Part shown: one piece after another, positions 352 to 10,288 of the stretch
How the letters are laid out: each line of letters begins with the position of its first letter
How positions within the stretch are numbered: the first letter of the stretch is position 1
Virus record (IMG/VR): IMGVR_UViG_3300033146_002242
Coordinates: 54,288 to 118,287 of that record
Source: a virus
DNA length: 64,000 bases
Reading direction: 5' to 3' (one strand)
Made by a program: the position numbers and the translations under genes
The notes under the pieces: model-generated
The model's database searches: none
Told to the model about the DNA's origin: nothing
Seen by the model: the letters and a program-made list of their open reading frames with translations, nothing else

Positions 352-592
352 GATTTAAAAGAATCGACAAAAACTTTTCGTTGTGGTAAATTGTAGTTCG
401 CGAACACCACAACATAGGTGGGTAGATTGCACCTCTCCACCAAAAGTTACAAAACGATTGCCATTCTCGGCCAAGAATGGAAAAAGGTATTATTCGTTTA
501 TTGCTCGGAATGAATAATATGCTTCGGTGAAGGCATCGGAGAATATAAAAAGAATTAAATAGCTTTGAAAATCAGGATTAACAAATATTGAT

Positions 593-818
593 ACTCTCAG
601 ATTGCGAAGCCTCAGAGCTCTTAGATGAGCAGCCGGAGGATAGGCTGAGAGTTGGAGTCGTCGATACAGGGAGTCCAGAGAATACTGTCAAGTCTTAAGG
701 CTTCGGTAGCAGTATTTGATGACGGACCCGGTGCAGTGTAGAAGCTAGTCTGGTAACAGAAGGCAAGGCCACCGAAAGGCGCATGGCCCATGCCTCGGAT
801 TTGCTTGCGGGGCTTTTT
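593..818 (+). ncRNA. unclassified structured RNA, copy 1
   Basis: GC-rich non-coding segment with stems ACTCTCAG/CTGAGAGT, GTCGTC/GATGAC, AATACTG/CAGTATT, AAGTC/GGCTT, TCTG-GTAA-CAGA and a terminal T-run; covaries with copy 2. Confidence 0.65.
651..764 (+). repeat. 114-bp exact direct repeat, copy 1 (copy 2 at 1718-1831)
   Basis: base-by-base identity GTTGGAGTCG...AACAGAAGGC. Confidence 0.95.
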
Positions 819-836
819 ATCCTAAGGAGCGAAATT

Positions 837-1016
837 ATGTTATATGAGTGTAATACCGGACTTAACTGTTCTGAGTGTAGAGGGTGTGCTACGCAACTTG
901 AAGTTTGTTCGGACTTTATCTCCCTTGAATACCTTTCAGAAGAGTGTACGCACAGAAATCTAGAAATGGAGTTGGAAGTGCCTATAACCAGAGAAAAAAC
1001 CCCGAGAATATCTTAG
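837..1016 (+). CDS. small Cys-rich hypothetical protein
   Basis: ATG 837 preceded by AAGGAG; CSECRGC motif. Confidence 0.5.
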   Translation: MLYECNTGLNCSECRGCATQLEVCSDFISLEYLSEECTHRNLEMELEVPITREKTPRIS

Positions 1017-1091
1017 CTACTTGTTAGTTTTGTGGGGCGTAGGGCAAGTTAACTCACGATGTTTTTGAAAAATTGAATAAGGAGTTAGACC

Positions 1092-1529
1092 ATGAAAGTA
1101 TATCTTACAAGACGAGTTGCTAATATGACAGATGGTATGGGGCCCATGCAAATCGACAAGTGCTTTCTTTACGAAGGGCATGCTAACAAGTATATAAATG
1201 CCCAACCAGGAATTATGGGAAGGCGAGCATGTTGGAGCAAGAGAGAGGTTGGAGACTGGGATGTTATCCCTTTAGAAGTTATTGAAGAAGATATTATTGG
1301 TAACACCCGGTCTGCTAATGAGATTAAAATAGAAGACTTGGAAGACTGGACTACGCAAATTTGGAAAGAATACGCTGCCGAATTATATCAAGGGAAATGT
1401 CTGATACTATCGGTTTCTTTGGGAAGAGGGGAATACCAGGTAACTCTTGGTAAAGAAGTTCTCTACCGAGGGTCTGATAAAAGTAAGGCTAAGTATGCGT
1501 ATGAGGAAGTCACAAAACTGGACGACTAG
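1092..1529 (+). CDS. hypothetical protein (145 aa)
   Basis: ORF with AAGGAG RBS. Confidence 0.7.
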   Translation: MKVYLTRRVANMTDGMGPMQIDKCFLYEGHANKYINAQPGIMGRRACWSKREVGDWDVIPLEVIEEDIIGNTRSANEIKIEDLEDWTTQIWKEYAAELYQGKCLILSVSLGRGEYQVTLGKEVLYRGSDKSKAKYAYEEVTKLDD

Positions 1530-1657
1530 GGTTAAAGTTAAGGGTATCTGTGCATAATAGGGTTAAAGTTCCTCCCTGCTGGATGTGTATAAACCAGTCT
1601 ACACTTGGTATAAAGACTAAAGGTGGGGTCGACTCCCATTGCCCGCACTATTTTGAC

Positions 1658-1845
1658 ACCTCTGGATTGCGAAGCCTTGTACCCTTGTTTAGAGGGAGCC
1701 GAGAGGATAGGCCAGAGGTTGGAGTCGTCGATACAGGGAGTCCAGAGAATACTGTCAAGTCTTAAGGCTTCGGTAGCAGTATTTGATGACGGACCCGGTG
1801 CAGTGTAGAAGCTAGTCTGGTAACAGAAGGCGCGGGGCGTTTTTT
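1658..1845 (+). ncRNA. unclassified structured RNA, copy 2
   Basis: ACCTCTGG/CCAGAGGT and CCCT/AGGG replace ACTCTCAG/CTGAGAGT and GCTC/GAGC of copy 1 (compensatory); 114-bp identical core; GCGGGGC + T-run. Confidence 0.65.
1718..1831 (+). repeat. 114-bp exact direct repeat, copy 2
   Basis: identical to 651-764. Confidence 0.95.
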
Positions 1846-8362: not shown

Positions 8363-10117
8363 ATGAAGAAAGTTGTTGTGAGAAAATATAGATGTTGGGA
8401 GCCTTTGAATATGGGGCAGGATGTAATTACCCAGTTGTGGTTGCAAAATCAAATGTGGAATAAATTAGTAGAGATGGAACAAAATTTATATAAGAAGTAT
8501 AGAGAAGTTATGTCTACTGATACAGCAGTAGCTGAAATTGAAGAAAAATTAACTCAAAATGATACTGCTATTAAAGCATATATGGAAGAAAGAAATGAAA
8601 TAAGGAAAAAACTTAAAAAGAAGAAATGTGCTGAAACAGCATATTTTGATGAACAAATTAAAGAATTATCAGCAGAATCAAAAGAGCTTCGTAAGATAGC
8701 TCGGGAAAAAAGAAAAGAAGCAAAAGAAAAAGTTAAACCTTTACTTGATGAAATCAATCAAGAAAGAAAGGAAAGAAGAAAAAAAATATATCAAAATTCG
8801 GGGTTGTTTTGGGGTAATTATAACAGAGTCATGGCATCATTTGATATCGCTGTATCAAAATCGATGAAAACTGGCAGCACTTTACGTTTTCATCGATTTG
8901 ATGGAACTGGAATTTTTAAAAATTTCTTGTCCCCCGGCCGAACAAATGATGACATGTTAAATGGAAAGTTAAGTTACTTACATTTACAGGACATTCCTGC
9001 TGAGTCATTTAATGATTATATCGGTAGAAATAATCCATGTAAAATGGTTCTCGGTAGTCGTAGAGAAAGATCACGAAAATATGGGCTTCTCAAATTCACG
9101 ATTTATCGAGGAAAAGATGAAGAAGGAAATAGAATAAATAGAATGTTAGAAATGCCAGTGCTGCTTCACCGTCCATTGCCAGATGATGAAGATTTATTAA
9201 TTAAAGAAGCCGTTGTACGGCGGGAGTGTGTATCACCCGGTGAATATAGATGGTTTTTTATATTAACATATGTTGGTGGTGAATTTCAGCCAGTTCAACA
9301 TGTTAATACTGGTAGTGTTGCTGGTATTAACATGGGTTGGAAAACTGTCAATAATAATACATTGCGAATTGCTACTTTGGTGTCGGATAAAGAAACAGTA
9401 CATTTCATTCTACCAGAAAAAATTATGAAAACATATGATTATTTAAATCAATTAAAATCGGAAGTCGATAGCATGATTAACCATGCTATTGCTAGAATAA
9501 AAGAGATTATGAAAGATGATGATGAACTTCCTGAATCAATGGGAGTTTATTTAACCAGAATAACAAAGGCCAAACGGCCGCGATATGATTTATTAGAGAA
9601 AATGATGTGGGTATGGGATAAAGAATTGTCATATAAACCAGAAGAATTTTCTGAGGCAAAGGCTCATTTTGATTATCTTAATCGTGTTTTATCTGAGATG
9701 AATAATTTGAGAGATAAAGTCCGTGGACACCGGTTAGATTTATATCGGTGTTGGACAAAAATGATTACTCAAAAATATGAAACAATTATTGTTGATAAAT
9801 TAAATTTGGCGCAACTAAGTAAATTGGAGGCCGATGATGGCACTCCCACCAATAACTTACCAGAAGCAGCTCGTAAAAATCGAGTCATTGCATCGGTAGG
9901 TATTTTTAAAGAATGGCTTGATAAACAGGCTTTGAAAGTGGGGTCTGTAATTATTAAGAAATCAATTAAATCATCCACAATCTGCTCAGATTGTGGCGGT
10001 AAATTGATTAGAAAAGACAGTATCATATGGGCGTGCGAAAATTGTGGTAGCGTGTTTGACCAAGATGTTAACGCGGCTACTAACTTGATACGGTCGTATC
10101 AAGAAGAAGCAGCGTGA
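8363..10117 (+). CDS. Cas12m-like (type V-U1/V-M) RNA-guided DNA-binding protein with predicted inactive RuvC
   Basis: Motifs collinear with Cas12m as I recall it: QLWLQN..WNKLVE, K/R-rich helical insertion, LFWGNYN, LRFHRFDGTG, PVLLHRPLP, GINMGW (RuvC-I D>N323), RGHRLDLYR, IIVD (RuvC-II E>D478), CSDC/CENC Zn finger, DQDVNAATNL (RuvC-III D568). Confidence 0.8.
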   Translation: MKKVVVRKYRCWEPLNMGQDVITQLWLQNQMWNKLVEMEQNLYKKYREVMSTDTAVAEIEEKLTQNDTAIKAYMEERNEIRKKLKKKKCAETAYFDEQIKELSAESKELRKIAREKRKEAKEKVKPLLDEINQERKERRKKIYQNSGLFWGNYNRVMASFDIAVSKSMKTGSTLRFHRFDGTGIFKNFLSPGRTNDDMLNGKLSYLHLQDIPAESFNDYIGRNNPCKMVLGSRRERSRKYGLLKFTIYRGKDEEGNRINRMLEMPVLLHRPLPDDEDLLIKEAVVRRECVSPGEYRWFFILTYVGGEFQPVQHVNTGSVAGINMGWKTVNNNTLRIATLVSDKETVHFILPEKIMKTYDYLNQLKSEVDSMINHAIARIKEIMKDDDELPESMGVYLTRITKAKRPRYDLLEKMMWVWDKELSYKPEEFSEAKAHFDYLNRVLSEMNNLRDKVRGHRLDLYRCWTKMITQKYETIIVDKLNLAQLSKLEADDGTPTNNLPEAARKNRVIASVGIFKEWLDKQALKVGSVIIKKSIKSSTICSDCGGKLIRKDSIIWACENCGSVFDQDVNAATNLIRSYQEEAA

Positions 10118-10121
10118 ATAT

Positions 10122-10166
10122 ATTCCCTGACATGAGAATATTTCAAAAATTCTCATGTCAGGGAAT
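10122..10166 (+). repeat. 18-bp perfect inverted repeat right after the cas12m-like stop (terminator or guide-RNA scaffold stem)
   Basis: ATTCCCTGACATGAGAAT / ATTCTCATGTCAGGGAAT, 9-nt loop. Confidence 0.85.
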
Positions 10167-10288
10167 CATTTTTACACGGTAAATACATACAAATCGTGGC
10201 AACTTATCAGGTCAAATATTATTATAATATTTGAATTTTTGAATTTACACATTTAATTAAATGTGATATGTCCTGGGAAGTCAATTAT

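Follow-up and report, generated by a model that had tools for sequence, protein, structure and literature searches.

The 64,000-nucleotide (nt) stretch of DNA considered here (hereafter the window) makes up the 3′ end of a 118-kb virus record, IMG/VR IMGVR_UViG_3300033146_002242, which is estimated to be ~38% complete. The record, from a giant, uncultured phage, carries genes for a T4-type portal, a Gp23-type capsid protein, a family B polymerase and pieces of a multisubunit RNA polymerase, together with eight tRNA genes. The capsid protein shares no more than 27% identity with that of any isolated phage and 59–67% with those of 25 uncultured IMG/VR records. Near the start of the window, two direct copies of a folded RNA element of ~180–230 nt bracket two small open reading frames (ORFs), forming a cassette in the following order:

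586–818, plus strand: RNA copy 1, the full-length form, with a TTGAYRC 5′ tail, a 5′ hairpin domain, a core, a 3′ hairpin and a terminator
837–1016, plus strand: cysteine-rich orphan ORF of 59 amino acids (aa) with six cysteines, behind a ribosome-binding site (RBS), AAGGAG, at 826–831
1092–1529, plus strand: gene for a 145-aa protein, the conserved neighbor of the RNA
1651–1845, plus strand: RNA copy 2, the short form

A first-pass annotation of this region, made from the letters alone, had described two copies at 593–818 and 1658–1845 that share an exact core and whose diverged 5′ parts stay paired, and this description holds in detail. The longest identical run spans 114 nt (651–764 = 1718–1831, offset 1067), and an ungapped 129-nt block (636–764 versus 1703–1831) is 96% identical. 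The outer helix of the 5′ part, P1, reads ACTCTCAG/CTGAGAGT (593–600/645–652) in copy 1 and ACCTCTGG/CCAGAGGT (1658–1665/1712–1719) in copy 2, with five of eight pairs altered on both strands and all eight Watson–Crick. The P2 hairpin is likewise paired in copies 1 and 2, through GCTC/GAGC and CCCT/AGGG, respectively, and the intervening strands GATTGCGAAGCCT, GATTGCGAAGCC and GAGGATAGGC are the same. As also claimed, copy 1 has 42 extra nt (765–806) between ...AGGC and GCGGGGC plus its T-run, which copy 2 lacks. In copy 2, the 5′ part (P1, then AUUGCGA at 1666–1672 and P2 at 1682–1696) is followed by the identical core (1718–1831), which runs directly into GCGGGGCG (1832–1839) and T6 (1840–1845), leaving neither a 3′ hairpin nor the 5′ half of the terminator. 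A count across the 118-kb record finds just these two copies.

A third copy lies elsewhere. A search of 5.8 billion proteins returned one close homologue of the 145-aa ORF (1092–1529), P0002, at 62% identity, which is encoded on an unrelated 941-bp metagenome contig from ENA (L005). A diverged copy of the RNA directly precedes the P0002 gene on the same strand, 40 nt upstream of it. The first-pass annotation had proposed that a covariance model be built from the two copies and used for searching. The resulting model, R1, built from the phage copies only, scores copy 1 (591–766) at 222.9 bits and copy 2 at 223.6 bits, and finds the contig copy at L005:22–256 with 76 bits (E = 1e-18). There, the whole fold is kept at ~70% identity. 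Because L005 carries the 3′ extension of copy 1, copy 1 is complete, and copy 2 derives from this form by deletion. In the numbering of copy 1, the full-length unit is made up of the following parts:

586–592, plus strand: conserved 5′ tail UUGAYRC
593–652, plus strand: 5′ domain, with P1 (593–600/645–652), P1b (610–613/636–639) and the P2 hairpin (617–630)
653–669, plus strand: linker UGGAGUCGUCGAUACAG, nearly invariant in the three sequences
670–729, plus strand: core, with P3 (GG-A-GUCC, 670–676/GGACCC, 724–729) and P4 (AAUACUG, 681–687/CAGUAUU, 710–716)
690–703, plus strand: P5 hairpin with a UUAA loop, inside the core
730–764, plus strand: conserved joining strand GGUGCAGUGUAGAAGCUAG, then P6, then AGGC
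749–760, plus strand: P6 hairpin UCUG-GUAA-CAGA, with a GNRA loop
762–794, plus strand: 3′ hairpin in three parts, GGCA/UGCC, GGCCA/UGGCC and CC-GAAA-GG
792–818, plus strand: intrinsic-terminator-like hairpin, GCCUCG(10-nt loop)CGGGGC plus U5, with a 6-bp stem at 792–813

The 5′ hairpin is long and irregular, with stems that vary freely and two internal loops that are fixed. In one of these loops, AUUGCGA (601–607) lies opposite AUAGG (640–644), both strands being invariant in all three sequences; in the other, AGA lies opposite AGCCG. The stems read CUCGUGC/GUACGAG (P1) and CUUAUC/GAUAAG (P1b) in L005. In the core, P3 encloses P4 and P5, giving three nested helices. Three of the helices drawn in the first-pass annotation, AATACTG/CAGTATT (P4), GGG..TCC/GGACCC (P3) and TCTG-GTAA-CAGA (P6), are all kept in L005 with altered letters: P4 changes from AAUACUG/CAGUAUU to AUUUCUG/CAGAAAU, P3 from GUCC/GGAC to GCCU/GGGC, and P6 from UCUG-GUAA-CAGA to CCUG-GAAA-CAGG, which retains the GNRA loop. 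The proposed AAGTC-TTAA-GGCTT hairpin (P5) survives in position, since L005 has a hairpin at the same place, but its pairs are replaced by those of a longer one (CUUCUCAA/UUGAGGAG); P2 is also a longer hairpin at the equivalent position in L005. The linker contains GUCGUC (657–662), the 5′ strand of a candidate helix with GAUGAC (718–723) that would make a pseudoknot with P3. This helix, also part of the original proposal, is the weakest element of the fold and the least supported of the proposed helices: it is 88.9% paired, but has two mismatches in L005 and no double change. Within the 730–748 strand, GAAGCUAG is invariant.

At the 3′ end, the 3′ hairpin is present only in copy 1 and L005, where one-sided changes keep its pairs (A–U to G–U and G–C to G–U in L005). 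The terminator stem changes from GCCUCG/CGGGGC in the phage to GUCCCG/CGGGAC in L005, with predicted energies of −11.1 kcal/mol for copy 1 and −11.7 kcal/mol for L005, and in both loci it overlaps the 3′ hairpin by 3 nt. A consensus scan missed the 792–818 hairpin because its loop limit is 8 nt. Two further features were considered and dropped. A long-range pairing of CGAAGCCU (605–612) with AGGCUUCG (698–705) was given up, as L005 has a local hairpin there, and a Bacteroidota-type promoter in the conserved TTGAYRC tail was discarded for its unsuitable spacing.

Over the three distinct sequences, in an alignment fitted to the structure and with a structure derived from the same sequences, 96.8% of pair cells are paired, versus 33–44% when the 3′ partners are slid by 1–3 columns. 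By the same measure, 17 of 44 pairs are double-changed, and none of 500 shuffles attains the observed values. P1 keeps every pair across the three sequences, with six of eight double-changed, and all four P1b pairs are double-changed; P4 adds two double changes, and P3, P6 and the terminator stem one each. The original claim of selection on RNA structure is borne out by L005, which keeps P1, P1b, P3, P4 and P6 through changes on both sides. One observation points the other way: the folding energies of single sequences are ordinary (z = 0.10 and −0.28), and the case therefore rests on comparing copies, not on thermodynamics. The RNA is noncoding, as judged from indels of 2, ~20 and >30 nt among the copies and from stops in each frame in at least one copy. 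It belongs to the plus strand, because its GNRA/GAAA loops, G–U pairs and U-runs are meaningful only there. The family is real, with conserved helices, plus-strand orientation and a place next to the same gene in two loci, and we consider it highly probable that this is a genuine structured RNA, selected for its fold, that falls in no described family.

The first-pass annotation had been unable to match the RNA to a known family, and database searches agree. All 4227 models of Rfam 15, run over the whole window at the gathering score, returned eight tRNAs only, and at E ≤ 10 with permissive filters the region 350–2050 gave chance-level matches to snoMBII-202, DicF and RFPL3-AS1_2, all with E > 2. 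The same search bears on a possible origin of the element from a group I intron, as a decayed fragment or a derivative, which we regard as extremely unlikely and already largely refuted. The idea derives from AUUGCG and GGUGCAG..AG.CUAG, which resemble the P4 and J6/7–P7 consensus of IC3 introns such as those of tRNA-Leu and tRNA-Ile, and from a group I intron 0.6 kb upstream of the element that reads GGUGCAGAGACUAG. These resemblances are superficial, because the Intron_gpI model (RF00028) is silent at E ≤ 10 over 350–2050, yet scores the true neighboring intron at 76.9 bits. Moreover, the helix order misfits the P3/P7 topology, the 3′ strand of P7 is absent, and the UGCAG segment is not kept in L005.

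The element is also rare. Neither copy 1 nor the L005 RNA gave any real blastn match in 50,697 phage records. Exact-pattern scans of IMG/VR found no true homologue (one scan gave three chance matches in a coding region), a JGI metagenome pattern scan gave 36 matches that all proved on checking to be chance, and pattern scans of GTDB genomes gave none and then five chance matches without a covariance model match. By covariance model search, the RNA is absent from 19 phage records with a related capsid gene, from ten whole records carrying the N-terminal domain family of the 145-aa protein (described below), and from 156 bacterial genomes (5 from GTDB and 151 Bacteroidota); as a positive control, the same search route recovers both copies in the phage's own record. 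A full-text literature search found no description of the RNA. The element is an accessory, patchily distributed module and not part of the lineage backbone. A neighboring 680-aa protein has no homologue in five related phages. One other candidate was examined and rejected. A bacterial contig, L033 (JGI Ga0075158_10011553), shares GGAGTCNTCGATTTAGGGAG and has two copies 1063 nt apart, with no covariance model match; its element is a duplicated region upstream of paralogous toxin–antitoxin-like operons. This ~250-nt noncoding duplicate (L033:700–1150 and 1760–2080) has hairpins of its own and precedes two paralogous small-ORF pairs, the larger ORF of each looking PIN-like by eye, and the 20-mer is common to it and the phage RNA by chance.

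For the first ORF between the two copies, the public gene call is a 77-aa ORF at 783–1016, which starts inside the 3′ hairpin of the RNA; a start at 837 behind AAGGAG is more plausible. The 59-aa ORF has no homologue beyond the window's own 783-start call, and may or may not be a real gene. In the 145-aa protein, residues 1–65 (window 1092–1286) belong to an uncharacterized small phage protein family with 197 representatives at E ≤ 0.001 and the consensus MKVYxxxRNADMTEGRGPMVxDxxFL...GVMGRxxKWS..YGDWxI, found in Synechococcus phages S-CRM01 and B3/B23 and in jumbo phages of Salmonella, Escherichia and Klebsiella. Neither this N-terminal domain family nor the 145-aa protein matches a Pfam, PHROG, NCBIfam or PADLOC model. 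AlphaFold gives confident models, with the entire protein at a predicted local distance difference test score of 82.8 and the N-terminal domain at 95.6. With the whole model, Foldseek found no PDB match at E ≤ 0.001 (rows for double-stranded RNA-binding domains had E > 0.1), and a BFVD search returned uncharacterized phage proteins alone. VIA-align gave best Z scores of 6.0 (C-terminal domain) and 4.7 (N-terminal domain), both below the trust level; at that Z of 6.0, the C-terminal domain, a β-sheet plus a helix, weakly resembles AP2, integrase-arm and WGR domains. No ToxN-like fold is among the fold-search matches, all of which are weak overall.

The arrangement of these parts suggests a role for the RNA. 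In our tentative judgment, the single most likely mechanism is an action in cis on the small-gene cassette, with the RNA as its leader or attenuator. The 5′ domain and core, once folded, would provide the binding site for a small ligand or for a protein such as the 145-aa product encoded downstream; binding would decide between the terminator and the competing 3′ hairpin that shares three bases with it, and this choice would set transcriptional read-through into the cassette (837–1529). All of this is inference, from transcription itself and the working of the terminator to the switch and the choice of binding partner. This mechanism is preferred because the terminator lies immediately before the RBS, because it overlaps an alternative hairpin, and because the RNA holds a conserved position upstream of the same gene. 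For copy 1, an intrinsic terminator sits between the fold and the RBS, and it is conserved in L005 with a compensatory change. In copy 1, the end of the U-run is separated by 7 nt from AAGGAG and by 18 nt from the ATG at 837, leaving no room for a separate promoter before that ORF. In both the copy 1 locus and L005, the RNA is upstream of the same rare gene and on the same strand. Known riboswitch and attenuator leaders such as c-di-GMP-I, T-box and ykkC share much of this design, including a multihelix fold upstream of a same-strand gene, variable stems with invariant loops, GNRA loops available for tertiary docking, and a GC hairpin plus U-run before the RBS that overlaps an alternative hairpin. 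Unlike them, the element matches no Rfam class, has one copy without an expression platform, and is known from only two loci.

Several observations weigh against a cis-acting leader. Copy 2 has no intact terminator and is not adjacent to a gene start; the ~180 nt between it and the next gene are AT-rich, promoter-like DNA, which is unlike a leader. L005 has a candidate promoter (TTGACT...) downstream of the U-run and ahead of the ORF, and a model search of 16 loci of other N-terminal domain family members found no such RNA. The only two loci known are syntenic homologues, which in effect reduces the RNA–gene link to one observation. The terminator conformation is only slightly preferred over the alternative (−22.4 versus −18.6 kcal/mol), the energies favoring the terminator together with most of the 3′ hairpin, and in L005, which has a 23-nt insert, the pairings that compete with the terminator differ from those in the phage. 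Given this small gap and these differing pairings, the switch is a conjecture.

A small RNA acting in trans, with each copy a separate gene that stops at its own U-run, explains copy 2 better, precisely because copy 2 lacks an adjoining gene start and its terminator hairpin is not intact. Such an RNA could form a particle with the 145-aa protein, neutralize it, or, as a counterpart to the stable RNAs without an assigned role from the T4 tRNA cluster, target a host factor. We regard this as the chief alternative to the leader and only a little less likely. A U-run ends both copies, and the element sits in the phage tRNA region, where stable RNAs are encoded; the order RNA–terminator–protein is conserved in L005, and the patchy distribution, with absence from the 19 related phages, suits an accessory module. 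The below-trust resemblance of the C-terminal domain to the nucleic-acid binders named above would fit as well. However, neither copy has an evident promoter upstream, the terminator leaves no space for a dedicated promoter ahead of the ORF at 837, and the proposed protein partner is without a match in any of the model collections.

Two known systems invite comparison with a trans-acting RNA. The stable species 1 and 2 RNAs of T4 (rnaC and rnaD) are likewise an RNA pair in a tRNA region, and the phage studied here has T4-type portal and capsid genes; they are, however, nonhomologous (the best R1 score on the T4 tRNA region, with filters off, is 8.3 bits, E = 0.086), and rnaC ends in a tRNA-like arm, whereas the phage element ends in a terminator. 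Type III toxin–antitoxin systems (ToxIN, CptIN and TenpIN) also have, in the same order, an RNA, an intrinsic terminator and a small protein gene, and are patchy and mobile. Their antitoxin RNAs are tandem repeats of 34–40 nt, whereas the element is one large fold of ~230 nt with no tandem repeat and with copies 1067 nt apart, and the 145-aa protein matches no ToxN/AbiEii or any other PADLOC model.

The base composition of the region raises a further alternative. Genome GC content is ~27%, that of the RNA copies is 52–53%, and that of the surrounding DNA is 35–50% over window ~−250 to 1850 and 40–50% over ~350–1850. Just upstream of the RNA element, with coordinates given also in the whole record (G000:C1) and in the extracted stretch L001, lie two genes:

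L001:106–636 (G000:C1:53485–54015): free-standing HNH endonuclease gene (Pfam HNH_3, E = 1e-12)
Window ~−266 to 97 (G000:C1:54022–54383; L001:643–1004): tRNA-Leu-like gene with a group I intron (Rfam RF00028) in the anticodon region

The endonuclease gene directly precedes the tRNA gene, whose intron (L001:676–927) is the one scored by RF00028 and lies ~0.6 kb upstream of the RNA. The window starts within this split tRNA gene, for which ARAGORN gives no call. Together, the two genes mark the neighborhood as a mobile-element hotspot. The copies themselves form a mosaic, with 114 identical bases adjoining strongly diverged, compensated stems, and this pattern, taken with the foreign base composition, suggests that the cassette (RNA, ORF, ORF, RNA) arrived or was reshaped by recombination. 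Copy 2, at the cassette's far end, is a truncated second copy that was probably produced by duplication or recombination in a mobile, GC-richer island.

Taken further, these observations would make the duplication a by-product of recombination, in which a foreign, GC-richer cassette left two direct repeats and the RNA structure has no function in the phage. The GC contrast, the adjoining endonuclease and intron-bearing tRNA genes, the resemblance of the 114-nt identity beside diverged 5′ parts to a recombination or gene-conversion mosaic, and the absence of the element from related phages all fit this account, which we nevertheless hold to be distinctly unlikely. The five double changes that keep the 5′ pairing and the fold kept in L005 imply selection on structure until recently at least, and the two ideas are in any case compatible, since a functional RNA can ride a mobile cassette.

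Catalysis is the remaining functional alternative. Small ribozymes are common in phages, and a self-cleaving or self-processing ribozyme whose two copies flank the cassette could cut it from a longer transcript. The two direct copies that bracket two ORFs, the possible pseudoknot and the invariant joining strands would suit such an RNA, but no known ribozyme family in Rfam matches it, a self-cleaver of ~175 nt would be large, no conserved position stands out as a candidate cleavage site, and the 3′ terminator would go unexplained. We judge it very improbable; a ribozyme has no specific support, and the position beside a terminator and an RBS is more in keeping with a leader or small RNA. A broader proposal, in which a mobile cassette of giant phages carries either a ligand-sensing riboswitch of a new class or a new ribozyme, with the invariant loops AUUGCGA/UAGG and AGCCG and the strands GGAGUCGUCGAU and GAAGCUAG as its binding or catalytic pocket, also seems to us rather unlikely.

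Large folded RNAs without a described family are rare, and several of the strangest, GOLLD, ROOL and HEARO, come from phages. The present RNA is short enough for in-line probing or cryo-EM, its invariant loops are clearly marked, and its neighbor is a conserved protein from a widespread small phage protein family. Should the RNA prove to be a switch, it would expose a signal tracked by a giant phage in the course of infection; should it belong to an RNA–protein module, it would provide a first handle on the family of the 145-aa protein. With only two loci known, the family is a rare one with thin statistics.

Upstream of copy 1, window 352–590 comprises ~240 nt of noncoding, hairpin-rich DNA (TTGTGGT..ACCACAA, GGTGG..CCACC, CCATTCTCGGCCAAGAATGG and GCTTCGGTGAAGGC). 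Rfam gives no match for this segment, which could be cotranscribed with copy 1.

Farther downstream in the window lies a gene for a TnpB-related protein:

8363–10117, plus strand: Cas12u1/Cas12f-like (TnpB-related) protein of 584 aa (PADLOC Cas12u1, E = 3e-87 over the full length; Pfam TNB, E = 5e-10)

We considered and rejected the possibility that the RNA element is a TnpB/Cas12 guide RNA (omega RNA or tracrRNA): the Cas12u1/Cas12f-like gene is 6.5 kb off, and the variable parts of the element are paired stems, with no free guide. A simple 20-mer scan of the 118-kb record found no CRISPR array. The Cas12u1/Cas12f-like gene lies inside the tRNA region and is followed by a strong hairpin terminator at 10120–10172. 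A second GC-rich island, at G000:C1:50288–51200, ~3–4 kb before the window, has 41–50% GC versus ~24% and contains one long reverse-strand ORF, membrane-protein-like in appearance; it is probably acquired DNA.

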